Part shown: in pieces, positions 1,945-61,722 of the stretch
How the letters are laid out: every line of letters begins with the position of its first letter
Numbering within the stretch: the first letter of the stretch is position 1
Source of the DNA: an uncultured Chloroflexia bacterium
GTDB lineage: Bacteria; Chloroflexota; Limnocylindria; Limnocylindrales; CSP1-4
Assembly (NCBI GenBank): GCA_963713075.1
Contig: CAVQKO010000006.1
Location: 644,408-708,407 of the forward strand
Direction of reading: 5' to 3'
DNA length: 64,000 nucleotides
Program-made: the position numbers and the translations under genes
Notes under the pieces: model-generated
What the model saw: only the letters and a program-made list of their open reading frames with translations
What the model was told of the DNA's origin: nothing
Database searches by the model: none

Positions 1945-2237
1945 GCCGGTGATCCGGACGGCATCGCCCGAGGACGCGCTAAGGTCGTCGTCTACACGGA
2001 CACGTTGATGACGATCGAAGCACGACAGAAGACGGCCACGGCAACCACGACGATGACTGATTCATCGCCAAGGACTCATCGAGTACTGGGTCACGATCCA
2101 GCCGAACACACGGGCAGACCTTCTCGGCGCATCGCCATGACGCTCACGGTACTATGCGAACGACGGACCGAGGTACGGCGGCAGCGGGCAAGAGCCCGCA
2201 GCGCGCCCACGGCTCGATCCGATGCAGGTCTGCTGAG

Positions 2238-37480: not shown

Positions 37481-37493
37481 GGACGGCCGGGCG

Positions 37494-39851: not shown

Positions 39852-40820
39852 TCACGCGGCGTAGGCCACCGCCACCACCGGGATCAGCACCAGCGTCGCG
39901 ATCGTCGCCACCGACAGCGTGTCGGTCACGTAGGCGCGCTCGCCATCGTCCGCGCGCGGTCCCAGGTACAGCGGCAGGACGAACGGCGGCGGCAGCACGG
40001 CCATCGTCATCACGGCTGCGCCGAACAGCCGGTCGAGGCCCAGCAGCCCCTCCACCACCAGCCGGTCGAACGCGAGCGCGAGCACGATCCACAGCGCGAG
40101 CCGGACCGCGATCGTCGCGCCCGGCCGGGTCAGCCCACCCGGCCGCAGGGACGTCGTGTAGCCGATGACGACCGCGATGAGCGGCGTCGTGCACGCGCCG
40201 AGCAGCCCGAGCGCCGCGGGGACGGCGCCCAGGATGGGGGAGCCGGCGAGCACGTCGCCGAGGCCCACGAGCCGTCCGGCGACACCGCCCAGGATGGCCA
40301 GGATCACGGGTGTCGTGATGAAGGTGCGCGCCGTTGCGCCCAGACCCGGCCGGACGCCGGTCGACCGGCGGACGACCACGGTCGCGAGCACGAAGAACAC
40401 GAACAGGACCTGGCCGAGGTCGATGATCCCGAAGCGGTACAGCTGGTCCTGCCCGAAGATCCCGCCGTAGATCGCGTAGCCCAGCATGCCCGCCTCGAAG
40501 CCTGTCAGCAGCGGGGCGCCATAGGGCGACCGCTCGCCGACCGGCCGCAGCAGCATCCCCCCGACGGCGAGGACGGCCACGGAACTCAGGAAGACCGCGG
40601 CCACGACCGGCAGGTAGCGCGCTTGGAGGTCGACGTGGAGGAATGTGAGGAACAGTGCTGAGGGCAGCGTGATCGTCAGCACCAGACGCCGGAGGTCGGC
40701 CACCGTGGACGCCGAGAGCCATGCCCGCCGGCGGAGCAGCCAGCCGAGGGCGAACAGCAGCAGGATCGGCAGGACCCGGCCGAGTGCGTCGAGGATCAGG
40801 CCCATGGCGGCGGAGCGCAC
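39852..40820 (-). CDS. AEC-family (auxin-efflux-carrier/malate permease-like) membrane transporter
   Basis: Has about 10 TM helices, with N- and C-terminal halves resembling the AEC fold. Confidence 0.7.
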   Translation of the reverse strand: MRSAAMGLILDALGRVLPILLLFALGWLLRRRAWLSASTVADLRRLVLTITLPSALFLTFLHVDLQARYLPVVAAVFLSSVAVLAVGGMLLRPVGERSPYGAPLLTGFEAGMLGYAIYGGIFGQDQLYRFGIIDLGQVLFVFFVLATVVVRRSTGVRPGLGATARTFITTPVILAILGGVAGRLVGLGDVLAGSPILGAVPAALGLLGACTTPLIAVVIGYTTSLRPGGLTRPGATIAVRLALWIVLALAFDRLVVEGLLGLDRLFGAAVMTMAVLPPPFVLPLYLGPRADDGERAYVTDTLSVATIATLVLIPVVAVAYAA

Positions 40821-40856
40821 GGCCGGCCGTGGCCGACCCCGCGACCACTCGACCTG

Positions 40857-44319: not shown

Positions 44320-46626
44320 TCAGGCGGGCGGCGCGCCGCCTCGGCCGACGGGCGGCGGTGGAGCGGCGAGGGCTCCCGACGGCGTGGGCGGCACCGGCGG
44401 GATCGTCGTGGCGGGCGGGAGGAGCGGCATCAGCGGCTGCGGCGAAACGAGCCGGGGTGGTGGCGGCGGGCCGAGGGTCCCGGTCGCGCGGAGGGCGATG
44501 AGCCAGTCGGGGGGCGGCGGCGGCATGACCGGGCGACTCCCCGCGTGGACCATGACCCGGATCGGCGCGCTTGCCACGGGCGCGGCCGTGCCGTCCGGCC
44601 CCGCCCCGGGCCCCGACACGAGCGCGGCGAGACGCCGGCGCGGCCGCCGCCGGACCCGCGAGACGACCACGAGGCCCACGATGACCGCGAGGTTGAACAG
44701 CACGATCGACCCGAGCGCCAGGCGGTTCTCGCCCTCGACCTCGTAACGGGCGAGCTCGGCCCGCAGGTGGGCGGCCGCCGCCTCGGCTGCAGCCGGGTTT
44801 CCGGCGCCGACCGCCGCCTCGGCCTCGGCCAGGGTGGGCGACTTGGACCCGAGCGAGCCCAGCCATGCGACGAAGCCGAGCGGGCTCTGGAGCGGCGCGA
44901 TCGCCGCAGCCACGTCGCGCGCCGCGTCGAGCTGGGCCCGGGCCATCGCGAGGACCGCGTCGAGGTCGTCGGGTGTCGCCGCCGCCTGCCACTCCGCCCG
45001 GAGGGGCCCCGACGTGGTGTTCGATCCGGGGACAAGCCGCCCCGCCTGGACGACATCGTCGTACGCCTCCTTGGCCGTCGCGATGGCTGCCTGCGCCTGC
45101 GTGAACTGCCATGCGGAGAGCGGGTTGCGCACCGCCATCGGCACCGTCCACGGCGCGGTGTGGCCGATGAGGTCGTGGTACGCGGAGCGGGCCACAAGGC
45201 GCGCCTGCAGCGTGGCGGTGTCGCTCGTGACGCCGTACCTGAGCAGCAGGCTCCCTGCCAGCGCGTCGGGGCCGTGCTGCGGGTAGACCCCGAGCTCGTC
45301 GAACGCGTCGAGCCAGGCCTGCCACGTCGCGGCCCCGGTTCGGCTGGACTGGCTGGCCCCGTACGGGTCGCGATGGTCGAACAGGGCGGCGAGGGCGGCC
45401 CGGGTCCCGTCGGGCCCGGCCGCACGGGCAACGAGCGTCACCACGTTGCACGCGGTGTCGTACTCGTCCCACGCCGCTTGCTGCTGCGCCGGCGTGTATC
45501 CGGGGTCGAGGTACGTCCATGTGCGCAGGGTCTGCTTGCCGGCGCCTGGCGGCACGGTGAGGCAGGGCGGCTCATCGGGGACCACCGACCGGGCTGCCCA
45601 CTCCGCCGACCCCTCGTACAGCCAGACCGGCAGCTCCGTCTTGGCGTTGAACCAGGCGTGGGAGAGCTCGTGGGCGACGGTGGTGCCGCTGTCGGCGGGG
45701 GTGTCGGTCGTGAGGAACTCGCTGAGCGCGATCTCGTTGGCGGCGGCCCCGTACTGGCCCTCGTAGCCGGGCGGCACGAACGCCTCGCGCACCGTCAGGC
45801 CGAGGATGTTGGGCAGCGGCCGCCCGATGAGGGTGACGAGGGAGGGGATGGAGGTCTGGAGGGCGGCAGTGACGCGCGACTCCCATTCGGTGTCGCCCGG
45901 CCAGGAGCGCAGCGTCACCGCGCCGCCACCGGTGGAGATGACAGCGACCCGGTCCTGTCCGGGGTCGATGAGGTAGAGGCACGTGCTCCAGGTGTCCGGT
46001 GATGGCAGGACGCCACTGCGCAGGACGAGTTGGTCGCCGTCGGTCGACGGGCTGAACGGCTGAAGGCTGCTGAATGCCCGGTCGAGCCGGTAGCGGTCCG
46101 GGGCGACGACGTCGACCTCGCCGTCCGTCTGGCCGGACCCGTGGACGCAGAGGTGGATCGCGTCGGCGAGCACCCGGGTGGAGGCCTCGGAGCGGATGCC
46201 GCCATCGGGGAGCGTGTACGTCACCTTGACGCGGCGCAGCGCGGCGGCGCGGTATGCCGGCACGTCGACGCTGATCTGGTGGTACCCGAGGGGATCGAGG
46301 ACCGGGGTGTCCGGCGGCGCCCAGTCCAGCGTGGTCGACCCGAACGCCGCATGGACGTCGGTCGCGGTGTTCTCGACCCACAGGTCCACCTTCTCGGCGC
46401 GGACGCTGGCCTGCTTGGCCGACCCAGGGTCACTGAACACCTCGGCGGCCGCCTCGGGAACGAGGTCGACGAGGACGGCCACCTGGCGGTGCTCCGGGTC
46501 AACGGTATACGTGGTGATCGACCGGTAGCCTGCCGACACCGCTGCGGCCGGGACGGGCAAGCCGGGAGCGAGCGCGAGCGCGGCGAGCAGGAGCGCGCCT
46601 CCCACTCCAGCCAGCACCGACCGCAT
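44320..46626 (-). CDS. Membrane-anchored zinc metallopeptidase (gluzincin HEXXH…E) with a Pro-rich C-terminal tail
   Basis: A signal peptide (MRSVLAGVGGALLLAALALA) from ATG 46624-46626 is followed by HELSHAWFN…EGSAEW (HEXXH+18E). A C-terminal TM helix (IVLFNLAVIVGLVVV) precedes a PPPPP-rich tail. Confidence 0.65.
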   Translation of the reverse strand: MRSVLAGVGGALLLAALALAPGLPVPAAAVSAGYRSITTYTVDPEHRQVAVLVDLVPEAAAEVFSDPGSAKQASVRAEKVDLWVENTATDVHAAFGSTTLDWAPPDTPVLDPLGYHQISVDVPAYRAAALRRVKVTYTLPDGGIRSEASTRVLADAIHLCVHGSGQTDGEVDVVAPDRYRLDRAFSSLQPFSPSTDGDQLVLRSGVLPSPDTWSTCLYLIDPGQDRVAVISTGGGAVTLRSWPGDTEWESRVTAALQTSIPSLVTLIGRPLPNILGLTVREAFVPPGYEGQYGAAANEIALSEFLTTDTPADSGTTVAHELSHAWFNAKTELPVWLYEGSAEWAARSVVPDEPPCLTVPPGAGKQTLRTWTYLDPGYTPAQQQAAWDEYDTACNVVTLVARAAGPDGTRAALAALFDHRDPYGASQSSRTGAATWQAWLDAFDELGVYPQHGPDALAGSLLLRYGVTSDTATLQARLVARSAYHDLIGHTAPWTVPMAVRNPLSAWQFTQAQAAIATAKEAYDDVVQAGRLVPGSNTTSGPLRAEWQAAATPDDLDAVLAMARAQLDAARDVAAAIAPLQSPLGFVAWLGSLGSKSPTLAEAEAAVGAGNPAAAEAAAAHLRAELARYEVEGENRLALGSIVLFNLAVIVGLVVVSRVRRRPRRRLAALVSGPGAGPDGTAAPVASAPIRVMVHAGSRPVMPPPPPDWLIALRATGTLGPPPPPRLVSPQPLMPLLPPATTIPPVPPTPSGALAAPPPPVGRGGAPPA

Positions 46627-46741
46627 CGACACGCACGGACCCCCACTGCGACGCCCATCGGCGTCACCCGCCACCATAGCCGCCACCACGCGCGCCTGCC
46701 CATCCCCGATGATGCGGGGAACCGCACCCGGGAGTCCGCCG

Positions 46742-48139
46742 ATGCTCGACACTGACCAGACCACCAGCCCCGGCCTCGAAGCCGCGATCGCACGCGGCCG
46801 TGAGACGGCCGAGCGCGAGGAACGCGCCCGGGCAGCCGCCCGCGCGCGACGCTTCGACACGATCGCCGTCCACGGCCTCTACGACCACCTCGCGGCGGCC
46901 GCCAACCAGGGCGCGATCATCGAGCCCGCCTACCTCGCCCCCGCCCAGCACTTCGCCGACAGCGACGAGCTCGAGGCGGCGCTCGGCTACCTGATGCCCG
47001 CCTGGGGCTACACGCGGATCGCGAACCCCACGACCCACTACCTCGAGGAGACGCTCGCCCTGCTCGAGGCGTACGGCACGGGTCTCACCGCCTCCACGGC
47101 CACGACCGGGTCCGGCATGGCGGCGGTCCACCTGGCGACCAGCGCCCTGCTGGCCGCGGACCCCGCACGGCCGGGCTCGGTGCCCAACCTGGTGGCGTCC
47201 GCGAAGTGCTACGGCGGCACGTTCATGCTGTTCACGCGCTACGCGACCGAGCGGGGGATCGGCGTGCGCTGGATCGCGGACCCGCTCGACGCGGACGCGT
47301 GGGCAGCGTCGATCGACGAGGACACCCGGTTCCTCTACGCGGAGGTGCCATCGAACCCGGCGGTCGCGGTGGCCGACATCCCGGCGCTCGCCGCGCTGGC
47401 CCACGGGCACGGCATCCCGCTGCTCGTGGACTCGACCGTCGCCACGCCGGCCTGCCTCCGGCCGCTCGGCCTCGGTGCGGACGCCGTGATCCACTCGCTC
47501 TCCAAGGCGATCGGCGGGTCGGGGCTGGCGATCGCCGGGGCGGTGACGGCGCGCCACGACATCCCGGTGCGCGTGGGCCCGGACGAGCTGCGCGCGGACT
47601 TCGCGACGCACCTCAAGCTGCTCCCGGGACGGGACCTCGGGGCGGCGCTCTCGCCGTTGTCCGCGCTCGTGCTGCTGTCCGACCTGCGCACGCTGCGCAC
47701 CCGGATGGACCGCTGGAGCCGGTCAACCCACACGGTGTCAGAGTTCCTCGAGGCGCATCCGGCGGTGGCGCGCGTCTGGTACCCGGGCCTGGCGTCGCAC
47801 CCGGGGCACGTCGTCGCGGCACGCGACTTCTCGCTCGCGGACGGGGACGCCGATGGGCGGCCGGCCGCCCGGTACGGGTCGCTGCTCGCGTTCGGGCTCA
47901 AGGGCGGGTTGCCAGCGGCGCGCCGCATGTACGACCGGCTGGAGCTGGTCTTCCGCGCCACGGATCTCGGCCGGGTCAAGAGCGTCGCCACGATCCCGTC
48001 CATCTCCACGCACCAGCAGCAGGGGGACGCAGGGCGCGCGACGGCCGACATCGACCCGGGCCTGGTGCGGCTCTCGGTCGGCGGCGAGCACCCTGACGAC
48101 GTGATCGCGGACCTCGCCCAGGCGCTCGAGCCTCGCTAG
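46742..48139 (+). CDS. PLP-dependent Cys/Met-metabolism enzyme (O-acetylhomoserine sulfhydrylase / gamma-lyase family)
   Basis: Has the SLSKAIGG lysine motif and the characteristic length and fold. The upstream extension to 46709 overlaps the peptidase start. Confidence 0.8.
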   Translation: MLDTDQTTSPGLEAAIARGRETAEREERARAAARARRFDTIAVHGLYDHLAAAANQGAIIEPAYLAPAQHFADSDELEAALGYLMPAWGYTRIANPTTHYLEETLALLEAYGTGLTASTATTGSGMAAVHLATSALLAADPARPGSVPNLVASAKCYGGTFMLFTRYATERGIGVRWIADPLDADAWAASIDEDTRFLYAEVPSNPAVAVADIPALAALAHGHGIPLLVDSTVATPACLRPLGLGADAVIHSLSKAIGGSGLAIAGAVTARHDIPVRVGPDELRADFATHLKLLPGRDLGAALSPLSALVLLSDLRTLRTRMDRWSRSTHTVSEFLEAHPAVARVWYPGLASHPGHVVAARDFSLADGDADGRPAARYGSLLAFGLKGGLPAARRMYDRLELVFRATDLGRVKSVATIPSISTHQQQGDAGRATADIDPGLVRLSVGGEHPDDVIADLAQALEPR

Positions 48140-48204
48140 GGCTGGTGCCCGGCGCTGAGCCACTGGCGGTCAGCTCGGCAGCGGGTTCTCTGATCCATCC
48201 GGCC

Positions 48205-49044
48205 CTACGGCGCCGAGACGTGGTCTGCCCAGTGGTGGGCCGGGGCGTAGCCGAGCACCTGTCGCGCCCGGTCGATCGAGAGCAGGGTCTCGCGGCCATG
48301 GAGCTCGCGGCGCACGGGCACGGCCGGGAACACCTCGGCCATCAGGTCCGCCGAGTCGCGGGTCATCACCGTGTCGTCCGCGGCCACGATGCAGACCTCC
48401 GCCCCGACGACGTCAGCCGAGAGGCCGAGCCGGCACGCCTGGGCGACGTCCCGGGCGTCGACATACCCCCACAGGTTCCACTTCCGCAGCTGTGCGTCGG
48501 CCCAGTACGCGGGGAACGCGGCGTAGTCATCGGGCTCCATGATGTTCGAGATCCGCAGGCCCACATGCGGGACGCCCGTCCGCCGCGCGAACTGCGCGGC
48601 CATCGTCTCGCTCGCGAGCTTCGACAGCGCGTACGAGCTCTCCGGCCGCGGCTCGATCGTCTCGTCGACCGGTGCGAAGAGCGGCGGGGTGTCGAACGGG
48701 AGGCCCAGCACCGTCTCGCTCGATGCCCAGACGACGCGACCCAGCCCGTTCGCCTCGGCGGCCGCGAACACGTTGTAGGTCGACGTGGCGTTGATCCGGA
48801 ACGTGTCTGCGGCGGGCCGGATGCCCGGGGCTGGGATGGCGGCCAGGTGGACGACGGCGTCGGCGCCGGCCAGCACCTCGACCGCCTGGCCGTAGTCGGT
48901 CAGGTCCGCGATCCTGCACCGGTCGTCCCACTCCCACGGGTCGTGCCGCAGATCCACGGACAGGACGCTGTGCCCGTGCTCGCGCAGGTCGCGCACGACC
49001 CATCGACCCGCCTTGCCGTTGCCGCCGGTGACCGCGATCCGCAT
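48205..49044 (-). CDS. NAD-dependent epimerase/dehydratase family protein
   Basis: Rossmann N-terminus MRIAVTGGNGKAG. ATG at 49042-49044. Confidence 0.8.
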   Translation of the reverse strand: MRIAVTGGNGKAGRWVVRDLREHGHSVLSVDLRHDPWEWDDRCRIADLTDYGQAVEVLAGADAVVHLAAIPAPGIRPAADTFRINATSTYNVFAAAEANGLGRVVWASSETVLGLPFDTPPLFAPVDETIEPRPESSYALSKLASETMAAQFARRTGVPHVGLRISNIMEPDDYAAFPAYWADAQLRKWNLWGYVDARDVAQACRLGLSADVVGAEVCIVAADDTVMTRDSADLMAEVFPAVPVRRELHGRETLLSIDRARQVLGYAPAHHWADHVSAP

Positions 49045-49151
49045 TCCGAGCCTCCTACCGCTGCTGCACGGACATTGTGGGCCGGGCGGGAAATGGAGCG
49101 GCGGGCGGGGCACGAGGCCCGACACCCGCCGCTCACCCGGAGAGGGATGGC

Positions 49152-49952
49152 TCAGCCGATGAGGAACGACACCTGCACGTCGATCGTGACGTCGGTCGAG
49201 CCCGCCTGGACGGGCGTCGCGGCCTTGTCGGGGACGGCGCCCGCGGCCGCGTTGGCGTATGACGGGGCGTACCAGACCGGCGTGGAGACCTGCTCGGAGA
49301 CCGCCGAGACGCCGGTGATCGCGAGGCCGAGCGTCTTCGCGTAGACATCGGCCTTGGCGCGCGCGTCCTTGGCGGCCGCCTCGCGGGCCTGCGCCTCGAT
49401 CGACGTCCGATCGGCGACATCAAAGCTGATGCCGTCGACGGTGGTGGCGCCAGCGGCCACGGCGTTGTCGACGACATCGGACAGCTTGCTCAGGTCGCGC
49501 ACGGTGACCGCGACCTGGTTGGTCAGCTGGTAGCCGCGCAGGACGGCGCTCGCGTTGGGCGGGTAGTCGTAGACCGCGTTGAGCGACACCTGTGTCGTCT
49601 TGACGTCCTTGTCGTCGATGCCCAGCTTCTTGAGCGCGGCGACGACGTTCGTCATCGCGGTTGCCGCCGCGTCGCGGGCCGCCTTGGCCGTGGGCTTCTG
49701 GATCTGCACGCCGAGCTGCACGTGGGCGAGGTCCGGCGTGACGGTGACCTTGCCCTCGCCGCCGACGGTGATCAGGTGCTCGGGCGCGGTCGTGTCGCCG
49801 GCGGCGGCGGCGGGCGTCGCGTACTGCCGCGGCGCGGCCACGTTCGCGAGCACCGGGCCTGCGATCAGCCCGACCGCCAGTGCCGCCACGGCGACGACGG
49901 CGAAACGGATCCCGGTGGAGCGGCCGCCGCCGCCAGTGGTCGTGGTGTCCAT
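49152..49952 (-). CDS. SIMPL (DUF541) domain periplasmic protein
   Basis: Signal/TM segment (IRFAVVAVAALAVGLIAG), SIMPL-like KVTVTPD…QLG…V core, 266 aa. Confidence 0.7.
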   Translation of the reverse strand: MDTTTTGGGGRSTGIRFAVVAVAALAVGLIAGPVLANVAAPRQYATPAAAAGDTTAPEHLITVGGEGKVTVTPDLAHVQLGVQIQKPTAKAARDAAATAMTNVVAALKKLGIDDKDVKTTQVSLNAVYDYPPNASAVLRGYQLTNQVAVTVRDLSKLSDVVDNAVAAGATTVDGISFDVADRTSIEAQAREAAAKDARAKADVYAKTLGLAITGVSAVSEQVSTPVWYAPSYANAAAGAVPDKAATPVQAGSTDVTIDVQVSFLIG

Positions 49953-50166
49953 TCGGTGTTGTCCCTGTGCAGTCGGCCCCGGTTCGGCAGACCGGCGGGG
50001 CCGCGTCCGGTCGTGCTGGCCACAGACGCTGCGACCCCCGATCCGGTTTCGCGTCCCGCTCGACCGTGCGCCACCCGCCGCAGGAGGCCTCCTTTTGGTA
50101 GGGTCCGACGTGTCGGGCCCAGGCCGCATCCACGGCGGCCCCGAGCCGGCCGCTCCTGGGGACTGC

Positions 50167-51942
50167 ATGCGGGATCCGGCGGAGGCACTCGTCGAGGAGC
50201 GGGTCGGCGCCGCGCTGCCTGTGGACGCCCGCGCCCACGCGAACGTCCGGATCCTCGCCCGCACCCGGGCCACGGGTCCGGCCCACGACGGCGAGGCCGA
50301 CCTGGTGGTGCTCCAGCCCGACCACGGGCTCCTCGTGATCGAGGTCAAGGGCGGCGAGCCCGGCCGCGACGCCCAGGGCCGCTGGTACGCGGGCGGCCGC
50401 CGGCTCGACCGGTCGCCGTTCGCCCAGGCCGAGGCGGCCAAGCACGACCTGGTCCGGGCCGTGGAGGGCCTGCCCGAGTGGCCACCCGGGCGATCGATGC
50501 GGGCGGGCCACGCGGTGGCCTTCCCGCACGCGGACCTGGCCAGCCTGCCCCGCGGCCACGTGCTCCTCGGGCCGGATGCCGACCGCTCGATCGTGCTCGA
50601 CGCAGCGGCCCTCGAATCGCCAGCCGCGACGCGCGCCGCGCTGGAGCGGATCTGGGAGTTCTGGACAGGGGACGGATCGAAGGGCAGCCCGCTTGAGCCC
50701 CCGCTCTTCGCTGCGGTGGACGCATACCTCTCGCCGACGGTCGCGCTCCGCCGGCTCGTTCGCCGCGATGTGGAGGACGCGAAGGCGCGCCTGGTCGCGG
50801 CGTCGAATGCCCAGCTCTACGTGCTCAACCTGGCGCGCTCGCTCCGGCGGGTCGCGGTGGTCGGGCCGGCCGGCAGCGGCAAGAGCCTGGTGGCCGTCGA
50901 GAAGGCGCGGCGACTGGCGCGCGAGGGCTTCCGGACGCTCTACCTGTGCTTCAACGCCCCGCTCGCAACGAGCGTGCTGCGGGAGGTCGCGGAGGATGAC
51001 CGTCCCGTCGGCCTGCGACCTGTGGTGCACACGTTCCATGGTCTGTGCGAGACGCTGGGGCGCGCCGCGGGGACGCTGCCCCCGAAGCCGCCGGGCTCGG
51101 GCGAGGCGCTGTCGGCATGGTTCGCCAGCCTGCCCGCCGCGCTCGACGCGGCGATCGCCCGGCTGCCCGGCGAGCGGTTCCACGCGATCGTGGTCGACGA
51201 GGGGCAGGACTTCGAGGCTGGCTGGCTGCAGTCGCTCGAGTTCCTGTTCCGGACGCCCGAGGACGGGGTCCTGTGGGTCTTCCACGACCCCGGGCAGGCG
51301 CTGTACCGCGACGATCAGGTGGACCGGCTCACCGCCCTCACGACGCTGTCGATGCCGGAGGACTTCCGCTCGCCCGCACCGGTGGCCGAGCTCGCGGCGC
51401 ACTTCTACCACGGGCCCGAGCCGCCGCTGCCGTACGGCCAGGGCGGCTCCGAGCCGGTCATCGAGGCGGTCGCCCCCGGCCCGCCGACGGTCGATGCCGT
51501 CCGACGCCACCTCCACCGGCTCGTCCACGACGAGGGCGTGCGCGCGTGGGACGTGGCCGTCCTGAGCGGGACGTCGTCGGCCAAGAGCCTCGTCTGGCGA
51601 CAGCGGCGGTTCGGCAACCTCGAACTCTGGAACGGCGCGGTGGACGCGGACGGCGTGTCGCTGGGGTACGCGGCGGAGGACGTGCCCGACGAGCCCAAAG
51701 ACGACGGCGTGGTGCTGTTCGAGACGGTGCGCCGGTTCAAGGGCCTGGAGCGGCCGGTGGTCATCCTGTGCGAGCTGCCCGAGGAGGGGCGCCGCGTCGA
51801 CGAGCTCGTGTACACGGCCCTGACGCGCTCGACGGCCCACCTCGTGGTCATCGCCCCCGCGGCGCTCGCGGCCCGCCTCACGGGCGCGCGGCCCGGGGGC
51901 GCGGCGCCCGTGACACGCAAGCTGGCACGCGGATGGCGATGA
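50167..51942 (+). CDS. NERD-nuclease-domain / SF1 DNA helicase fusion protein
   Basis: Has an N-terminal NERD-like block (DLVVLQPDHGLLVIEVKGG), Walker A (GPAGSGKS), Walker B (VVDEGQD) and C-terminal SF1 motifs (VYTALTRSTAHLVVI). Confidence 0.7.
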   Translation: MRDPAEALVEERVGAALPVDARAHANVRILARTRATGPAHDGEADLVVLQPDHGLLVIEVKGGEPGRDAQGRWYAGGRRLDRSPFAQAEAAKHDLVRAVEGLPEWPPGRSMRAGHAVAFPHADLASLPRGHVLLGPDADRSIVLDAAALESPAATRAALERIWEFWTGDGSKGSPLEPPLFAAVDAYLSPTVALRRLVRRDVEDAKARLVAASNAQLYVLNLARSLRRVAVVGPAGSGKSLVAVEKARRLAREGFRTLYLCFNAPLATSVLREVAEDDRPVGLRPVVHTFHGLCETLGRAAGTLPPKPPGSGEALSAWFASLPAALDAAIARLPGERFHAIVVDEGQDFEAGWLQSLEFLFRTPEDGVLWVFHDPGQALYRDDQVDRLTALTTLSMPEDFRSPAPVAELAAHFYHGPEPPLPYGQGGSEPVIEAVAPGPPTVDAVRRHLHRLVHDEGVRAWDVAVLSGTSSAKSLVWRQRRFGNLELWNGAVDADGVSLGYAAEDVPDEPKDDGVVLFETVRRFKGLERPVVILCELPEEGRRVDELVYTALTRSTAHLVVIAPAALAARLTGARPGGAAPVTRKLARGWR

Positions 51943-51952
51943 TGGGCGGCAG

Positions 51953-54900
51953 ATGAGCCGTGCCGTCCTCGCCCCCGCCGCCCAGACGCCGCCGCCGACC
52001 GCGGAGCAGCGGCGGATCATCGAGGCGCTGGACGGCCCCCTGGTGGTGGTCGCCGGCGCCGGCACGGGCAAGACGCGGGTTGTCGCGGAGCGGGTCAGAT
52101 GGCTCCTCGAGACCCGCGGGCGACGAGCGGCTGGCACCGGCGCCTGGATCGCGGCAGCGCCGGAGGAGCGCCACGGCAGCCCGTTCGACGGGCCGCTCGT
52201 CCCGGAGCAGCTGCTGGTCCTGACGTACAACGTCAAGGCCGCCGCAGAGCTCGCCGAGCGGCTGGACGCTGTCGTGGGACCCACCACGCGCGCGCGGATG
52301 ACGGTCAGCAACTTCCACAGCTTCTGCCAGCACGTCCTGAGCGTGAGTGCCGCGGACGCCGGCCTGCCGTCGATCCCCGACGTCCTCGACGGGCCGGGCC
52401 AGCTGCTCCTGCTGGGGGACCTGCGCCCGGACCTGGGGCTGCGCTACTACAACGAGTTCTCGTACAAGTCGCTCGTCGACTTCATCAACCGGGCGAAGGA
52501 CGAACTGGTCACGCCCGCGGAGGTCGTGGGCTTCGCGGACGCTGAGCGTGCGGCGTACGAGCGCCGATACGGTGGCCGGTACGCGGACGCCGAGGCGCGG
52601 CTACTCGCCGCGGGGAGCCTCGACCCGCTGCGCGCCGTGCAGCGGGCCTACGCGGGGACGCGCTCGGCCGAGCGCGCCGACGCGCTCGGCCTGCCGCCTC
52701 GCAGGTCCGGGCCAGACGATCCTGGGCGGATCGCGGAGCGCGAGGCCCGCCGCACCATGGCCGGCGACGGCTCGGCGCGGGCCATGTTCCAGTTCCCCGC
52801 GGAGGAGGTCCCCCGGATCCTCGCCCTGGCGGAGACCTATGAACGTGACGGCGCCGCGCTCGAGGTGCGGCGCCTCCGGGAGCTCGCAACCGTCTACGCG
52901 GCGTACCAGGCGGAGCTCGCGCGGCGCAACGCCCTGGACTTCGGCGAGCAGATCGCGCTGGTCGCCCGCCTGTTCAAGCAGCGCCCCAACGTGCTGCGCC
53001 GCTGGCAGCGCCAGTACCGCTACATCCTGGTGGACGAGTTCCAGGACGCGAACATCGCGCAGATCGAGCTGGTGGAGCTGCTGGGCCGCACACCCGACCG
53101 CCCGGACAACGTCATGGTGGTCGGCGACGACGACCAGTCGATCTACCGCTTCCGCGGTGCCAGCTTCGCGGCGTTCAGCGAGTTCACCGACCGCTTCGCC
53201 CGCCCGCCCCTCCACGCTCCCGGTGCGCCGCCGCCCGGGCCGCCGCCGGTCCTGCGACTGCAGCGCAACTTCCGCTCGACAGATCGGGTCCTCACCCTCG
53301 CCAACCGCCTGATCGCCTGCAACGCCACGCGGTTCGACCCCGGCAAGCAGCTGTTCGCGGAGCGCGCGGCCGGGGCGCCCGCGGTCCTCCACGTCTGCGC
53401 CAACGAGGAGGACCAGGCGGTCGCGATCATCGACGCCGTGAAGGGGCTTGCCGGGCCTGCCGCCGGACCTGCGGGACGACCCTGGCGCGACGTGGCGGTC
53501 CTGTACCGCAAGCACAAGCACCGCGACGCCATCGTCGACCGGCTCAGGGCGGAGGACATCCCGTACACCGTGGTCGGCGGGCTGGCCCTGTTCGAGACAC
53601 CCGAGATCCGCGACCTGGAGGCGGCCATGCGCGCCATTGCGGACCCGGAGGATGACGCGGCGCTGCTGCGCGTGCTCACGGCCGGCCCGTGGCGGCTCGA
53701 TGCGCTCGAGGTCCTGGCCGTCACGAGGGACGCCAACTTCGACCGGTCGCGCGTTGTGTCCGCGATCGAACGGCTCGTGCGGACCGGTGAGGCGATGCGC
53801 GACGTGCTCGCGGCCGACGCGCCGGCGCCGGACCACGCGTCCACCCACGAGCGGGAGCCCTCTCGTGTGGCGCCGGGCCTGCGCGCCAAGCTGCGTCGTG
53901 TCCAGGGCGTGCTCGACGAGTTGAACCCGCTCACCTGGCGCGAGGGCCCCTACACCGTCGTGGCGCGGTACCTCGAGCGCACCGGCACGGTGCTCGACCT
54001 GCTCTCGACGGGCACGCTCGAGGCCCGGCGCGCGGTGGTCAACATCGCGAGCTTCCTGCGGTTCGCCGCCGCGTGGCAGGAGGCGAACCCGCAGCGGTCG
54101 CTCGCGGACTTCGCCGGCTACCTCGACGCGTACAAGGCGGCCGGCGGCGAGCTGCCCACGAGCGTCGAGCTCTCGGAGGACACCGAGGGCGTGCGGCTGA
54201 TGACGCTGTACCAGGCCAAGGGCCTCGAGTTCCCGGTCGTGGTGGTGCCGAACCTCGTCGAGGGGGAGTGGCCGGTCAAGGAGCAGGGCGGGGGTCTGTT
54301 CCCGCGCGAGCTGCTGCGCGAGCAGCCGCCAGCGGGCGACCTCCACCTCGACGAGGAGCGGCGGCTGCTCTACGTGGCCATCACGAGGGCCCAGGAGCGG
54401 CTGGTCCTGACCACGCACGACCAGGACGGGGCGCGCCGTCCGTCGGTGTTCCTCGACGAGTTGTCCGCCGGAGCGGGCGATGAGCTGGCCGTGGTCGACC
54501 GGACCCGTCGTGCTGCCGCCGAGGGCACCGAATCCGTCGAACCCGTCGAACTCGCCGTGGCCGCCGAGCGCGACGAGCGCGACGAGGCGGAGCCGGACGA
54601 ATGGGCGGCCCCCGAGGACGAGGCAGGTCTGGTGTCAGCGATCGCCGAGGCGCGGCGGGTCCTGCCCCTGCCCACGGCCCGCGAGCGCCGCCTCGCGCTC
54701 CGGCTCCGGGCCGCCGAGCTCGTGGGCCTGCTCGAGGGGACGGCGGCGGGCGACCCCGAGTCGAGCGGCGCCCGCGAGGCGTTCACCTCGCGCCTCGCAG
54801 ATGTCGGCCGGAGCGCCACGCTGCGCGCGGACGAGGCCCGGTCGGCCGGGCTCGATCCGCTCACGTTCCGGGACCTCGCCCTCGATTCGGGCGCCGGCGC

Positions 54901-55687
54901 GAGCCTGTTCGAGGTGGCGCCCCTGCCGCCCCGGTTCTCGTACTCGTCCCTCGATACCTACGAGCGCTGCCCGCTCCAGTACGCCTTCGCCTACGTCTAT
55001 CGCGTCCCGGAGCCCGCCCGGCCGCGGGCCCCGCTCGCCTTCGGCTCGACCGCCCACGAGGCGTTCGAGGCGTTCACGCGGGAGCGGCGCGAGCGGCTGG
55101 CGCGAGGTGAACCCGGGCCCACGCGTGCCGATCTCGAGCAGATGTTCCGCACGCGCTGGCGGCCGCAGGCGTTCGGCGATCGGGAGACCGAGACGGCGTT
55201 CGGGCGCAAGGTCGGCCAGCTGCTCGAGAACTTCTGGACCGGCGAGGTCGCCGCCGTGTCGGAGGCGCTGGCCGAGGAGGCGGAGTTCACGCTCGTCCTG
55301 GACCCGGCCGACGGCACGCCGGCCGTGCGCATCTACGGCGAGATCGACCGGATCGACCGGCTGCCCTCGGGCGGCATCGAGGTCATCGACTACAAGACCG
55401 GCAGCCCGCACTCGCAGAAGGGCGTCCACGACAACCTGCAGCTGACGATCTACGCCCTCGCGTGCCGCGACGCGCTCGGCCTCGGCACGCCTGAGCGGGT
55501 GACGCTCTACTACACGGAGCTGGGCCAGCGGATGTCGACGACCCGGACCGACGAGCAGCTCGATGCGGCGCGCGAAGAGCTCGTGGAGCGCGTCCGGCCG
55601 ATCCGGGCGGGGGTGTTCCACGCGACGCCCGGCGTCGCGTGCCGCAGGTGCGATTTCAGGACGATGTGCCCGGAGCGGGTGCTCTGA
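51953..55687 (+). CDS. UvrD/Rep-like SF1 helicase fused to a C-terminal RecB/Cas4-type PD-(D/E)XK nuclease with a 4-Cys (Fe-S) cluster (AdnB/AddA-like)
   Basis: Has motifs I (GAGTGKT), II (DEFQD), III (GDDDQSIYRFRGA), V (YQAKGLEFPVV) and VI (VAITRAQ). The nuclease block is GEIDRIDR…IDYKTG with CP…CRRC…C. The gene lies 10 nt after the NERD gene stop. Confidence 0.8.
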   Translation: MSRAVLAPAAQTPPPTAEQRRIIEALDGPLVVVAGAGTGKTRVVAERVRWLLETRGRRAAGTGAWIAAAPEERHGSPFDGPLVPEQLLVLTYNVKAAAELAERLDAVVGPTTRARMTVSNFHSFCQHVLSVSAADAGLPSIPDVLDGPGQLLLLGDLRPDLGLRYYNEFSYKSLVDFINRAKDELVTPAEVVGFADAERAAYERRYGGRYADAEARLLAAGSLDPLRAVQRAYAGTRSAERADALGLPPRRSGPDDPGRIAEREARRTMAGDGSARAMFQFPAEEVPRILALAETYERDGAALEVRRLRELATVYAAYQAELARRNALDFGEQIALVARLFKQRPNVLRRWQRQYRYILVDEFQDANIAQIELVELLGRTPDRPDNVMVVGDDDQSIYRFRGASFAAFSEFTDRFARPPLHAPGAPPPGPPPVLRLQRNFRSTDRVLTLANRLIACNATRFDPGKQLFAERAAGAPAVLHVCANEEDQAVAIIDAVKGLAGPAAGPAGRPWRDVAVLYRKHKHRDAIVDRLRAEDIPYTVVGGLALFETPEIRDLEAAMRAIADPEDDAALLRVLTAGPWRLDALEVLAVTRDANFDRSRVVSAIERLVRTGEAMRDVLAADAPAPDHASTHEREPSRVAPGLRAKLRRVQGVLDELNPLTWREGPYTVVARYLERTGTVLDLLSTGTLEARRAVVNIASFLRFAAAWQEANPQRSLADFAGYLDAYKAAGGELPTSVELSEDTEGVRLMTLYQAKGLEFPVVVVPNLVEGEWPVKEQGGGLFPRELLREQPPAGDLHLDEERRLLYVAITRAQERLVLTTHDQDGARRPSVFLDELSAGAGDELAVVDRTRRAAAEGTESVEPVELAVAAERDERDEAEPDEWAAPEDEAGLVSAIAEARRVLPLPTARERRLALRLRAAELVGLLEGTAAGDPESSGAREAFTSRLADVGRSATLRADEARSAGLDPLTFRDLALDSGAGASLFEVAPLPPRFSYSSLDTYERCPLQYAFAYVYRVPEPARPRAPLAFGSTAHEAFEAFTRERRERLARGEPGPTRADLEQMFRTRWRPQAFGDRETETAFGRKVGQLLENFWTGEVAAVSEALAEEAEFTLVLDPADGTPAVRIYGEIDRIDRLPSGGIEVIDYKTGSPHSQKGVHDNLQLTIYALACRDALGLGTPERVTLYYTELGQRMSTTRTDEQLDAAREELVERVRPIRAGVFHATPGVACRRCDFRTMCPERVL

Positions 55688-56120
55688 TCGCCTGCGCGTC
55701 CGGGGTCGCAGGCGGCGCCGGCGGCTCCAGCGGACGGTGCAGCGCGGCGAGCCGCTCGCGGACGACGCCCTCGATGCGGGTGGCGGCCTCCACCGCGATC
55801 GCGTGCTCCCAGAACCGCAGCACGGTCCAGCCCTCGGCCGCCAGGAGCGCGTCCGTCTCGGCATCACGCGCCGCGTTGGCGGCGATCTTCGGGCCCCAGT
55901 AGTCGGGATTCGTGGCCGGCATGTGGAAGTGCTCGGGGCAGCCGTGCCAGAAGCAGCCGTCGAGGAACACCGCGACGCGGGCCCGTGTGAAGACCAGGTC
56001 GGCCGACCGCCGGACGGTCCGCACCGGCCGCACCGCGACCCGATACCGCAGGCCGCGCGCGTGGACGGCCGAGCGCACCGCGAGCTCTGGCCGCGTGTCT
56101 CGTGAGCGGTTCGCCTGCAT
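55656..56120 (-). CDS. vsr: Very-short-patch-repair endonuclease
   Basis: Vsr hallmarks are present: RSRDTRPEL…GLRYR…VFLDGCFWHGCP. Its 3' end overlaps the convergent helicase-nuclease gene by 32 nt. Confidence 0.8.
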   Translation of the reverse strand: MQANRSRDTRPELAVRSAVHARGLRYRVAVRPVRTVRRSADLVFTRARVAVFLDGCFWHGCPEHFHMPATNPDYWGPKIAANAARDAETDALLAAEGWTVLRFWEHAIAVEAATRIEGVVRERLAALHRPLEPPAPPATPDAQAIRAPAPGTSS

Positions 56121-56261
56121 GGTCTTGCGGTTGGCCGCCGACGACGCCCACGAGCCCGCCGGCGGCTCGTAGCCGACGGGGCTGCTGCTGGCGGGCTTCG
56201 GCCTGGCGCGTCGCTTGGACACGTCCACAGGGTAGGGGAGTGGCGGTCCCCGCCGCGCGCG

Positions 56262-56432
56262 TCAGCGCCCCCCGTAACGCTCGGCCTCCTCCGTGTCGAA
56301 GTTGATCGCCGCGTCGCACTCGAGGCACACGGGCGGGTCCCAGTCACCCGCCTCGGGCAGGTCCGTCCGTCCGCACGTGGCACACACGAATGGCGCCCCG
56401 GCACCAGCATCGTCGTCGGCCGGATGGGCCAT
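56262..56432 (-). CDS. Small zinc-ribbon protein (56 aa, CxxC…CxxC)
   Basis: The protein is MAHPADDD…VCATCGRT…VCLECDAA. Its RBS is weak, and an alternative upstream start would give 76 aa. Confidence 0.4.
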   Translation of the reverse strand: MAHPADDDAGAGAPFVCATCGRTDLPEAGDWDPPVCLECDAAINFDTEEAERYGGR

Positions 56433-56654
56433 GCGCGGCGGCCACGGCGGAGGTTCCGCACCGTCGGCCTGGCGCGAGAAGGGCCATCGCATGGGCACAT
56501 CCTCGACGGGCCGCGTGACAGCTTGGGTGTCACGGTTCGGGCGGTCCCCGGGCCGCGAGCGTCCCACGCACCTCAGCGCAGGCTCATGGGCCGCTCGCGG
56601 GGCCCCGCTCGCGCTTCGCTGCCCAGCGCCGCCATCGGGCCTAGACTCGGGAGC

Positions 56655-57578
56655 ATGCGATACGTCGAAACGGACGGTCTGCGGGTGTCGCGGATCGGGC
56701 TCGGGACCTGGCAGTTCGGGTCCCGCGAGTGGGGCTACGGCGAGCAGTACGCGACCGAGACGGCGCCCGCGCTGCTCCGCCGCGCGATTGAGCTCGGCAT
56801 CACGATGTTCGACACCGCCGAGGCGTACGGCCCCGGCCGCTCCGAGGCGATCATCGGTGACGAGTTCGGCGGCCTCGAGGACGGCCAGCGCGCCGGGCTC
56901 ACGGTGGCGACAAAGCTGATGCCCCTGGCCCCGGCCGAGGTGATCGTCGCGAAGCAGTGCGCCGGCAGCCGGCGGCGTCTGAGGATGGACCGGCTCGACC
57001 TCTACTACGTCCACTGGCCGAACTCGTTCGTCTCGCCGCGGCGCGTGGGCCAGGCGGTGCGGCCGCTGCTCGAGGCCGGCCTCGTCCGCCGCTTCGGCGT
57101 GAGCAACCACTCGGTGGCACAGTGGCAGGTGTTCGAGCGCGGGCTCCGCGCCAAGGCGGTCGCGAACCAGGTGCGGTTCAGCCTGATCTCGCCGCAGCCC
57201 GCCGACGAGCTGGTCCCGTACGCGCACGAGCAGGACCGCCTGATCGTGGCCTACTCGCCGATCGGGCAGGGCGTGCTGGCCGGCCGCTCGCCGCGATCGC
57301 TGCCGTGGATCCGCCGAGGCGGGCCGCTGATGGCGCGCGTCGGCGGGCGGTCGAGCGTGGACCAGCTCCAGCAGGCGCTCGCCGAGGTCGCGATCGCCAA
57401 CGGGGCGACGCCGGCGCAGGTCGCCCTCGCCTGGGTCGTGTCGCACCCCAACACGGTGGCCATCCCGGGCGCGAGGACGCTCGAGCAGCTCGAGCAGAAT
57501 GCCGCGGCCGCCGACCTGGTGCTCGCCGACGACCAGCTGGCGCGCCTGACCGAGGTGTCGCGAGCCTTCGCGCGCTGA
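56655..57578 (+). CDS. Aldo/keto reductase
   Basis: AKR motifs (GLGTWQFG, FDTAEAYG, LDLYYVHWP) are present. The product is 307 aa. Confidence 0.85.
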   Translation: MRYVETDGLRVSRIGLGTWQFGSREWGYGEQYATETAPALLRRAIELGITMFDTAEAYGPGRSEAIIGDEFGGLEDGQRAGLTVATKLMPLAPAEVIVAKQCAGSRRRLRMDRLDLYYVHWPNSFVSPRRVGQAVRPLLEAGLVRRFGVSNHSVAQWQVFERGLRAKAVANQVRFSLISPQPADELVPYAHEQDRLIVAYSPIGQGVLAGRSPRSLPWIRRGGPLMARVGGRSSVDQLQQALAEVAIANGATPAQVALAWVVSHPNTVAIPGARTLEQLEQNAAAADLVLADDQLARLTEVSRAFAR

Positions 57579-57671: not shown

Positions 57672-59759
<2,088 letters not shown>

Positions 59760-59808: not shown

Positions 59809-61400
59809 CTAGCGGAGCACGATGAAGGCGTCGAGCGTGGTGCGCTTGCCTGACTGCCCGTTGACGATCTTGATCGTCCGGGTGCCGGAACCGCTCCACA
59901 GGCCGCGGTAGATCACCTGTCCGTAGGCGATCGAGCTGCGGTAGAGCGAGAACTTGCCCTTGAAGACGCCGTTCACGTAAACCCGGACGTAGCCGCCCGT
60001 CGACATCTTGGGGGCGACGTAGGCCACCTGCATCCCGGTGAACTTGAGCTGCGCGTACTTGCCGTACACGGTGTCGAGCTTGTAGCCGCTGCCCGACGAC
60101 GCCGAGGCGCTGCGGTATGTCCACGTGCCCGTGTAGGTCACCGACTTCGACGTCTCCTGGTAGGCCGCGAGCGAGTGCGTGGTCGTCGTGGCCCAGCCGG
60201 AGGTGTTGCCGATGCCGTCAGTGGCCCGGACGCGCCAGGCCAGGGCGGTGCTGAAGTGGTACGTCTTGATGATCGAGGTGGCGGCGCCCGTGTAGATCGT
60301 GGTCCAGGCGCCGGTGCCCACTCTGGCCTGAACCTGGTAGGAGGCCACGCCTGTCTCGGCGTCGGAACCTGACCACGAGATCTGGATCGTGGCGGCCTCG
60401 TTGACCGCGGCGCTGCCGAGGGTCAGCGTCGGCACGCCCACGACGGGCGGGGTGACGTCGGCGCTGACCGTGACGTCCATCGTGGCCGTGTTGGAGTCGA
60501 GCGACCCGTCGTTCGCCTTGAAGGTGAAGCTGTCGGCGCCGGCGAACGTGCCGTTCTCGGGCATGTACGTCCATGACCCGTCATCGTTGACCACGGCGGT
60601 CCCGTGCGCCGCCTGGTCCACCAGCGTGTAGGTCAGGTCGGGGCTGTCCACGTCGGTGCAGGCGAGCGTGCCCGACTGCACGGCGCCCACGCGACCGAGC
60701 GAGGTGACTGGGCTCGCGCACACCGGGGCGTCGTTCACCGCGCTGACGGTCAGGTTCATCGTCGCCGTGTTGGAATCGAGCGACCCGTCGTTCGCCTTGA
60801 ACGTGAAGCTGTCAGGCCCGTTGTAGTTGGCGGCCGGCGTGTAGGTCCACGAGCCGTCCGCGTTGACGACGGCCGTGCCGTGGCTGGCCTGCGCCACGCG
60901 TGCGTACGAGAGGTTGGCGCTGTCCACGTCGGTGCAGGCGAGCGTGCCCGACTGCTGCGTGTCCTCGTTGCCGCTCGAGGTGAGCGGCGTGGCGCACACC
61001 GGCGCGTCGTTGACGGCGGTGACGCTCACGTAGAGGTGCCCCTGGACGACGTTGCTGCCGTCGCTCACGTTGAACCACGTGGACGCCGACCCGCTGGCGT
61101 TTGCCGCCGGCGTGAACGTCACGTCGCCCGTGGCCGAGGTGAAGGTCAGGTTGCCGAACGAGGGGGCGAAGTTCGCGAACGAGATGATGCTGAGGGTGTC
61201 CTCCTCGGGGTCCGTGGCGCCCGTGAGGAGGTTGCCGTCGAGCGGCGTGTCCTCGAGGGTCGTCAGGTGGACGTCCGGGACGGTGGGCGCCGATCCGCTT
61301 GCCACCGCCGCGCCTGGGCTGAACATGGCTGCCACCAGGGCCGCTCCCACCACGGCCGGGACCACCCCTCGCCTGGTTCGAGTGCCGCGCTCGACTCTGT
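59809..61400 (-). CDS. Secreted protein with two tandem about 100-aa Ig/cadherin-like repeats and a C-terminal beta domain
   Basis: A signal-like segment (VVPAVVGAALVAAMFSPGAAVASG) precedes duplicated VNDAPVCA…TLACTDVDS…FTFKANDGSLDSNTATM modules. The start is uncertain and may be the GTG near 61400. Confidence 0.6.
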
Positions 61401-61722
61401 GCACGGGGACTCCTCTTCCCTGGGCGGGAGCACCTCGCCGCCGCCCCTCTGCTCCATCGTCCGGTGAGCCGGACGGCTCTGGGCCCGCTGGAGCCGTGTC
61501 TGAGGCACGGCACGCGTCCCGGTTCGGTCGCTGAGGGACGGCCACTGGCGGTCTGGCATGATCCGCGCAGGGAAGCGAACGACCCGCCGCGCTCGGGCGT
61601 CGGGCGTATCGTCACCGGTCCGCGGCGCCCCGGCCAGAGCCAGAAGGTCCTCCCCCATTCGGGGGGTTCGCCGAGGCCGCGCCGGGCCCCGGCGGGGCGA
61701 CCGGCCCGGCTGCGGTGCGTCC

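Follow-up and report, generated by a model that had tools for sequence, protein, structure and literature searches.

A recurrent gene pair in Limnocylindrales-group Chloroflexota, encoding a NERD–SF1 helicase and a UvrD–Cas4-like helicase–nuclease, borders a defence-gene hotspot

The bacterial end-processing machines RecBCD and AddAB have a dual role, acting in recombinational repair of host DNA and degrading cut foreign DNA. In AdnAB, both subunits consist of a UvrD-like motor with a C-terminal RecB nuclease; the Fe-S cluster is carried by AdnA, whose motor is dispensable. To our knowledge, neither the NERD–superfamily 1 (SF1) helicases nor the UvrD–Cas4-like fusions have been characterised experimentally, although both occur widely, and we know of no member of the latter family that has been studied biochemically. 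UvrD–Cas4-like fusions form the largest branch of the PF12705 nucleases, a single clade, and adjoin type III restriction-modification genes or the combination of Dcm and Vsr (Hudaiberdiev et al., 2017; PMC5704561). Here, we describe two neighbouring genes, which we call NERDhel and HelNuc, in a 64-kb stretch of contig CAVQKO010000006.1 from an uncultured Chloroflexia bacterium (the window; positions refer to it unless another locus is named). NERDhel encodes a NERD–SF1 helicase, and HelNuc encodes a UvrD-type helicase joined to a RecB/Cas4-type nuclease with a putative Fe-S cluster. The architecture of HelNuc is already known; what is new is that a NERD-helicase recurs as its partner and that a defence hotspot lies next to it. 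Judging from sequence comparisons, we give about an even chance to the pair being a conserved two-enzyme DNA-end-processing module that would serve both repair and the clean-up of cut foreign DNA.

NERDhel (591 amino acids (aa); 50167-51942, plus strand; ATG at 50167, TGA at 51940-51942) contains the sequence EADLVVLQPDHGLLVIEVKGG and begins with a nuclease domain of the NERD (PD-(D/E)XK) type at residues 10-99 (50194-50463, plus strand), which matched Pfam NERD (PF08378) with E=4.6e-5 and 24.3 bits against a gathering cut-off of 22.1; a precomputed PF08378 match is present on most NERDhel orthologues. Across 22 aligned orthologues (54-86% identity), the putative catalytic residues D45 (50299-50301), E59 (50341-50343), and K61 (50347-50349) were invariant. 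The same was true of the Walker A motif GPAGSGKS (50863-50886) and of motif II, DEGQD (51196-51210), in a compact SF1 helicase core at residues ~226-563 (50842-51855, plus strand), and the late motifs FHDPGQA, RRFKGLER, and TALTR were invariant or nearly so. The core was delimited from these motifs and from matches to AAA_19, UvrD-helicase, and UvrD_C_2; over the C-terminal two thirds of the protein, Pfam returned UvrD_C_2 at E=1.2e-8 and AAA_16 at E=9e-9, together with a weak match to SLFN-g3_helicase. Homologues numbered 836, the best 120 of which share 53-88% identity and are ~575 aa long, and at least 861 clusters (50% identity) of NERDhel-like proteins match at E≤1e-30. When the AlphaFold2 model of NERDhel (predicted local distance difference test score, 83) was searched with Foldseek, SLFN11 and SLFN14 were the best matches (E=6e-15, TM-score 0.45), followed by UvrD and Upf1.

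A spacer of 10 nucleotides (nt; 51943-51952, plus strand), read off the sequence, separates NERDhel from the next ATG, at 51953, where HelNuc starts (1244 aa; 51953-55687, plus strand; identified from Pfam, NCBIfam, and PDB matches). Its UvrD/PcrA-like motor occupies residues 21-820 (52013-54412, plus strand), as placed by Pfam (UvrD-helicase, E=9e-55; UvrD_C, E=2e-40), PDB matches, and an alignment of 15 orthologues in which GAGTGKT (Walker A), DEFQD (motif II), and GDDDQSIY are invariant. The nuclease domain, at residues 994-1240 (54932-55672, plus strand), matched PDDEXK_1 at E=9e-41 over model positions 1-247 of 247. Four cysteines in it, C1006 (54968-54970), C1230 (55640-55642), C1233 (55649-55651), and C1239 (55667-55669), are invariant in the 15 orthologues and make up a putative Fe-S cluster motif; H1035, D1132, D1146-Y-K1148, and Q1163..Y1167 are invariant as well. 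Domain map and sequence here bear out the first-pass annotation, which was made from the letters of the window and had described gene 1 as a NERD domain with a complete SF1 helicase and, 10 nt further on, a 1244-aa protein with UvrD motifs, a Cas4/RecB-like nuclease, and a cysteine cluster.

HelNuc is not an orthologue of AdnB, AddA, or RecB, because of its structure matches and because its NCBIfam scores lie far below the family cut-offs. Among solved structures, the motor matched PcrA (7e-65) better than AdnB (2e-42, motor only), and the nuclease matched only AdnA, the Fe-S subunit (1.6e-12), with no AdnB nuclease match reported. NCBIfam gave partial matches to pcrA, addA, recB, addB, and cas4, with the nuclease scoring 9.5e-14 for addB_alphas and 1.7e-11 for cas4; the bit scores were 144.5 for addA_Gpos (cut-off 707.65), 128.1 for recB (696.05), and 50.5 for addB_alphas (486.5). 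AdnAB orthology of HelNuc was rejected on these PDB and NCBIfam scores. At E≤1e-10, HelNuc has 4910 homologues, the best 120 of which are 55-82% identical to it. By its architecture, HelNuc is a UvrD–Cas4-like (PF12705) fusion and thus belongs to a known but uncharacterised family.

The first-pass annotation had also likened the locus to the actinobacterial adnA-adnB...uvrD2 neighbourhood, with a NERD-helicase in the place of AdnA. The gene order is superficially similar, and the HelNuc motor and nuclease do match AdnB and AdnA, respectively, with the E-values given above. Two genes beyond HelNuc there is indeed a gene (57672-59759, plus strand) for a 695-aa UvrD-type helicase that ends in an HRDC domain (UvrD-helicase 5e-52, HRDC 8e-23) and matches PcrA at 1.4e-68; the protein has the same domain order as mycobacterial UvrD2 but lacks the tetracysteine module, and no cysteine occurs in its translation from the end of the helicase domain to the start of HRDC. 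A variant AdnAB locus is nonetheless very improbable in our view. All 78 related loci, which come from species-representative genomes, belong to metagenome-assembled genomes of Chloroflexota, several of which carry the label Candidatus Limnocylindrales, and the host is a high-GC member of the Limnocylindria/Limnocylindrales group of Chloroflexota, not an actinobacterium. The HelNuc motor is closer to PcrA/UvrD than to AdnB, and the nuclease is of the Fe-S type seen in AdnA, AddB, and Cas4. NERDhel has its nuclease at the N terminus, the opposite domain order, together with a motor of non-UvrD size, and comparison with the PDB gave no AdnA match at E≤0.01. Finally, the genes between HelNuc and the UvrD+HRDC helicase sit in a slot whose content varies between species. 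Nothing in these comparisons shows a replacement of AdnA at this position.

The evidence that brings NERDhel and HelNuc together comes from the 78 related loci, onto which we mapped nine window proteins and three others and in which all neighbouring open reading frames (ORFs) were clustered; the relatives are named L001, L003, and so on, L003 being the closest to the window and L004 the next. HelNuc lies downstream of NERDhel on the same strand in ~20 of the 27 species loci with NERDhel identity ≥58% and enough flanking sequence, and the pair stays neighbouring over 42-86% identity in several arrangements, with exact gene gaps blurred by frameshift-split genes in several long-read assemblies. 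The usual order in the closer clade is a SIMPL-family gene on the minus strand, NERDhel, a yccF-like membrane gene, and HelNuc. In L003, the two genes are separated by 39 nt of sequence nearly identical to the window's; the 10-nt gap in the window is explained by a C-terminal tail of NERDhel that, in the 22-orthologue alignment and at the L003 junction, is peculiar to this genome. Direct adjacency is found elsewhere in L015 (gap 146 nt), in L093 (gap 17 nt; NERDhel 44% and HelNuc 68% identical), and in L091 (gap 111 nt; 42% and 44%), where the flanks are wholly different. L039 has the inverted order of HelNuc, one gene, and NERDhel, and L044 keeps the proximity with the yccF-like gene upstream instead. 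In L091 (154-8526; GC 0.74), the pair is followed by co-directional genes for an SbcD-like Metallophos protein and an SbcC-like AAA_23/SMC_N protein, forming a four-gene cluster that looks like an end-processing one. Other nucleases also occur next to NERDhel. Stand-alone Fe-S PDDEXK_1 nucleases with all motifs lie beside it in L029, L032, L033, and L034, which have no HelNuc nearby, and in L038 a shorter ORF near NERDhel carries the catalytic and C-terminal cysteine motifs of the PDDEXK_1 nuclease. In L026, L027, and L035, NERDhel adjoins a gene for an SF1B helicase that also contains a PF13482 nuclease-like domain, and the non-homologous end-joining genes for Ku and LigD come next; in L026 (10001-20526), this 1187-aa protein (PF13482 with AAA_11/AAA_12) starts ~40 nt after NERDhel. 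Taking the loci together, we consider a functional linkage between NERDhel and HelNuc probable.

Several observations weigh against a joint end-processing module, and many of them would fit a rival account, in which NERDhel and HelNuc are independent housekeeping genes of DNA metabolism that share an inherited gene order and no joint function, their 10-nt spacing being a recent accident of the loss of a yccF-like gene plus the tail. The unrelated genes upstream (SIMPL, epimerase, and Cys/Met enzyme) are about equally syntenic, so part of the pairing signal reflects shared ancestry. In most relatives, the yccF-like gene stands between NERDhel and HelNuc, which shows that the pair is not an obligate operon, and opposite-strand genes are sometimes inserted as well. 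HelNuc is missing from L004 (79% identity), where 118 nt separate the NERDhel stop from the vsr stop; it is not within 10 kb in 7 of the 27 closer loci or in most loci at ≤57% NERDhel identity; it lies 18.6 kb from NERDhel in one genome (L084); and it occurs with no NERDhel neighbour in L085, L088, and L089. The NERDhel tail that shortens the spacer is unique to the window's genome. In addition, the structural matches of NERDhel do not settle the polarity of its motor, and a GAAC-N4-GTTC (LexA-type) box, which may not be the box of this lineage, is absent upstream in the window; a perfect copy of the same box, with the same caveat, was found in 0 of 73 orthologous upstream regions. The yccF-like insert, the 39-nt spacer in L003, and the lack of HelNuc in L004 together argue against an obligate, translationally coupled operon, so the tight coupling first proposed for the two genes describes the 10-nt gap of this genome and is not a property of the family. 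Full independence nevertheless seems unlikely to us. Adjacency appears again at 42-49% identity with completely different flanks (L091, L093, and L044), it outlasts gene-order changes in L039 and L044, and where HelNuc is absent another RecB-family nuclease or helicase–nuclease is often nearby.

The yccF-like gene is not present in the window. Its product, a membrane protein of ~170 aa in which a YccF-like repeat occurs twice, is encoded at L019 (11772-12284), L087 (7376-7987), and 17 other loci. The gene is placed in three ways, between the pair, upstream of it (L044), or downstream of it (L025), and may belong to the cluster as a dispensable third gene.

By composition and position, NERDhel and HelNuc look like long-resident, vertically inherited chromosomal genes rather than mobile cargo. 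Genes in the window, whose GC content is 70-77%, were called by frame-specific third-position GC (GC3); the GC3 values of NERDhel (0.92) and HelNuc (0.93) match those of metabolic and core neighbours, orthologues of both are spread through the lineage and uniform in length, and the divergence of both proteins tracks that of neighbouring housekeeping genes. The ORFs annotated across the 64 kb include no integrase, transposase, methyltransferase, or CRISPR genes, and a repeat search around the locus returned GC-rich matches at chance level only, with no flanking repeats of the kind that mark mobile elements. NERDhel is divergent from a SIMPL-family gene (49152-49952, minus strand; start at 49952 placed by frame plot and translation), and the 214-nt region between them (49953-50166) is the presumed promoter region; a scan for sigma-70 promoter and terminator consensus sequences found 0 sites, and an Rfam search of the window found 0 RNA families.

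The reading that we favour, a two-enzyme end-processing module, can be set out as a sequence of steps. The NERDhel and HelNuc genes of the window would be co-transcribed. HelNuc would load at a DNA end or nick, translocate in the 3'->5' direction, and unwind the duplex, and its Fe-S nuclease would cut the displaced strand; NERDhel would provide a second motor and a second nuclease for the other strand. The pair would then be an end-processing machine analogous to AddAB, AdnAB, and RecBCD, with a composition not homologous to theirs, that repairs double-strand breaks and also degrades foreign DNA cut by neighbouring restriction-type nucleases. We favour such a dual role because it fits both the native, repair-type features of the genes and their defence contexts. 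In Synechococcus elongatus, an exogenous plasmid is transferred or maintained better when a solo Cas4-like nuclease or UvrD has been lost (PMC10653904), and these data fit a dual-role end-processing reading. A more specific version, in which NERDhel and HelNuc assemble into one heteromer that has a motor and a nuclease from each protein, constituting a fourth class of bacterial end-resection enzyme, distinct in composition from RecBCD, AddAB, and AdnAB, and in this lineage also degrading DNA downstream of any restriction-type nuclease that happens to fill the hotspot, is offered only tentatively, and we think it rather unlikely.

The defence context begins immediately 3' of HelNuc, with a convergent vsr gene for a very-short-patch mismatch endonuclease (55656-56228, minus strand). 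The protein matched TIGR00632 at E=1.6e-37 (128.4 bits against a cut-off of 97.85), Pfam Vsr at 1.4e-17, and PADLOC Vsr at 4.4e-15. The two genes overlap by 32 nt (55656-55687), as had been read from the sequence at first pass, and an identical 32-nt overlap is present in L003. The vsr start is most likely the GTG at 56228 rather than the previously assigned 56120, because residues 5-36 of the longer protein are conserved in L003 (89% identity) and the match to the Vsr model starts from residue 30. With its native GC3 of 0.92 and 89% identity in both L003 and L004, vsr is an old occupant of its position. A cognate C5-cytosine methyltransferase gene (dcm), the usual neighbour of vsr, is not apparent here: none of the ORFs annotated in the 64 kb encodes a DNA_methylase domain, and tblastn of the window with the Dcm of L089 gave 0 matches; the methyltransferase could be elsewhere in the genome.

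The vsr position is a defence-gene hotspot, a feature absent from the first-pass annotation. In the relatives that were measured, the slot 3' of HelNuc spans 1.5-3.5 kb and has a GC content of 0.61-0.68, compared with 0.67-0.71 for the locus, and its gene content differs between species. A PADLOC-family gene or a gene with a restriction or toxin Pfam domain occupies the slot in 18 of the 21 loci examined, a figure that falls to 16 of 21 when vsr is left aside; these counts include the window and L003 (vsr), cover nearly all loci with enough sequence, and start from ten loci chosen for their GC dip, and the slot genes were called without the GC3 filter so that low-GC genes were included. SauUSI-like type IV methyl-directed restriction enzymes (E down to 1e-270) occur in L020, L025, L065, and L080, with a fragment in L019, and AspBHI-like methyl-directed enzymes (PADLOC/Pfam) in L013/L001, L066, and L087. 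Other occupants, assigned with PADLOC, are HNH nucleases (L009, L055), PDC-S41, a Schlafen-type helicase (L008, L056), PDC-S14 (L058), Mza genes (L022), and a DrmD fragment (L053), and L061 carries DpdE (E=1e-191). The far border of the slot is a conserved aldo-keto reductase gene, found in the window at 56424-57578 (plus strand; Pfam Aldo_ket_red, 8.5e-57) and also in L003, L004, and L015. Both borders are visible in L087, which reads HelNuc, AspBHI-like enzyme, PIN toxin-antitoxin pairs, helicase, and Aldo_ket_red. Several of the alternative occupants are restriction enzymes dependent on methylated DNA, which, alongside a vsr with no C5-cytosine methyltransferase in the window, raises the question of the methylation state of the host.

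Defence-related and DNA-processing genes also surround HelNuc at some loci outside the usual arrangement. In L089 (8001-17188), where HelNuc has no NERDhel neighbour, it is followed by a C5 DNA methyltransferase (Dcm), a HhH-GPD glycosylase that may act on T:G mismatches, and a pair of UvrD-like genes. In L084 (7034-16799), a PARG-like gene overlaps the beginning of HelNuc, and after HelNuc comes a gene for a 1547-aa protein that joins an AAA_11/12 helicase to a DUF559/MTES_1575 endonuclease domain; HNH_2 and GmrSD_N fragments lie nearby. AbiE stands beside HelNuc in L088, and no defence-related gene stands beside it in L085.

These contexts raise the possibility that NERDhel and HelNuc are a dedicated two-gene anti-phage or anti-plasmid system, fixed in the lineage as the core of a defence island and without a host repair role. 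Beyond the 3' hotspot and the defence-like genes around HelNuc in L084 and L088, it would account for the PADLOC results on NERDhel, which matched the defence-associated NERD-helicase models RTasNERD-Hel (3e-34) and C3a187 'NERD+UvrD' (2e-25). The best structural match of NERDhel is to the Schlafen proteins, in which a nuclease and an SF1 helicase are likewise joined, and a defence role had been predicted for UvrD–Cas4-like fusions in 2017 (PMC5704561). More distant NERD-helicases, at 28-40% identity, keep similar company: in Thermomicrobium the neighbours are type III-B CRISPR genes; on an Azospirillum plasmid they are DarT, a DUF1998 gene, and a helicase-related gene; and in another case they are a SIR2-domain gene and a SNF2-helicase operon. 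We judge a purely defensive role to be rather improbable all the same, given the native codon usage, stable position, occurrence in many species, and housekeeping-like divergence of the two genes, a window devoid of mobile-element genes, and the repair-type neighbours found elsewhere (SbcCD; Ku and LigD). PADLOC v2 contained no model specific to HelNuc apart from cross-matches of GajB and RTasHel to its UvrD motor, and a search of 50,697 phage records gave one weak match only. At the locus, PADLOC returned only generic helicase cross-matches (GajB, RTasHel, and MkoA) and candidate single-gene NERD-helicase models, and no PADLOC v2 system (Gabija, Nhi, DISARM, Mokosh, and others) had a complete component set in the window, which contained no GajA, no reverse transcriptase, and none of the other partner components. 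End resection and defence, the two functions suggested at the outset, thus both remain live, with adjacency over 42-86% identity and distant relatives in defence islands. The dual-role end-processing module accommodates both.

Two of the distant loci deserve a separate remark. The Azospirillum plasmid locus was considered as an instance of the same pair and rejected, since its UvrD neighbour is not a UvrD–Cas4 fusion. In L092 (2829-15725), a NERD-helicase gene (40% identity) and the beginning of a DEAD-box helicase gene overlap; the two form part of a co-directional operon with a SNF2 helicase gene at its end and SIR2_2 upstream, and this operon is likely to be an uncharacterised multi-gene defence system.

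The remainder of the window encodes core metabolism, including phosphoenolpyruvate carboxylase, a two-component system, an inositol-type catabolic cluster, formate–tetrahydrofolate ligase, FolD, and a Cys/Met pyridoxal phosphate enzyme. On the side of the SIMPL-family gene away from NERDhel is an epimerase-like gene (48205-49125, minus strand), of which the ORF at 48145-49344 (plus strand) is a shadow. An 846-aa protein encoded at 44320-46860 (minus strand) had no Pfam, NCBIfam, or PADLOC match and is kept at the same upstream position in many relatives at 29-37% identity (cluster c17). Three further high-GC3 ORFs had no Pfam match: 2061-4217 (plus strand; 718 aa), 37182-38831 (plus strand; 549 aa), and 39852-40856 (minus strand; 334 aa). 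A large sugar/inositol-type catabolic region extends over 14085-39768 and includes KduI/IolB, several GFO_IDH_MocA oxidoreductases, xylose-isomerase-like TIM barrels, a thiamine pyrophosphate enzyme, aldehyde dehydrogenase, LacI regulators, and a periplasmic binding protein. Directly beyond the UvrD+HRDC gene, 59809-61545 (minus strand) encodes a 578-aa protein with three Big_9/cadherin-like repeats.

A lineage in which both genes are fixed, native, and repeatedly adjacent provides a clean test case for the function of these enzymes and for their cooperation. The hotspot, which is bounded by conserved genes in an uncultured soil group, could be used to mine new defence genes, and the locus as a whole could serve to test whether end-processing helicase–nucleases are functionally coupled to restriction-type nucleases.

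The NERDhel–HelNuc pair shares parts of its design with several known systems. Like Gabija, it consists of two genes that supply a nuclease and a UvrD-like helicase, and GajB models match UvrD cores; these matches are generic, because the UvrD+HRDC gene matches GajB models equally well, and the pair differs from Gabija in having no gene for GajA, the OLD/TOPRIM ATPase–nuclease. NERDhel resembles the group 3 Schlafen proteins SLFN11 and SLFN14 in placing an N-terminal nuclease before a C-terminal SF1 helicase, but at ~16% identity and with a different nuclease fold family this is an analogy of design rather than membership. The two-domain architecture and length of NERDhel are those of NERD-helicases from defence islands (C3a187 and the UG34-associated RTasNERD-Hel). 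Those genes are found on plasmids or in defence operons, in patchy contexts, whereas NERDhel has native composition and a stable position and is paired with HelNuc, with no reverse transcriptase nearby.

HelNuc is comparable to AddAB and RecBCD in combining an SF1A motor and a RecB-family nuclease in one protein, the nuclease here being of the AddB type with a putative Fe-S cluster; unlike those enzymes, the pair has no partner resembling the inactivated helicases AddB or RecC. As in AdnAB, two adjacent genes jointly supply a pair of motors and a pair of PD-(D/E)XK-type nucleases, only one of which carries an Fe-S cluster (putative in HelNuc); a UvrD-type 3'->5' motor and a nearby UvrD+HRDC gene are further likenesses. 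In contrast to AdnAB, however, the Fe-S nuclease here belongs to the protein with a canonical, active-looking motor, and the partner combines an N-terminal NERD domain with a compact SF1 core of 340 aa. The closest relatives of HelNuc in design are the UvrD–Cas4-like fusions, with which it shares an SF1 UvrD-like motor, a C-terminal PF12705 nuclease, and the cysteine pattern C...CxxCx5C. Their published contexts recur as well, since the window carries Vsr, L089 has Dcm, and restriction enzymes are present in many of the relatives; agreement with the clade of Hudaiberdiev et al., 2017 is thus one of architecture and context, not of phylogeny. What sets HelNuc apart from the fusions described there is that it is lineage-wide and chromosomal and has a recurrent NERD-helicase partner, which PMC5704561 does not mention.

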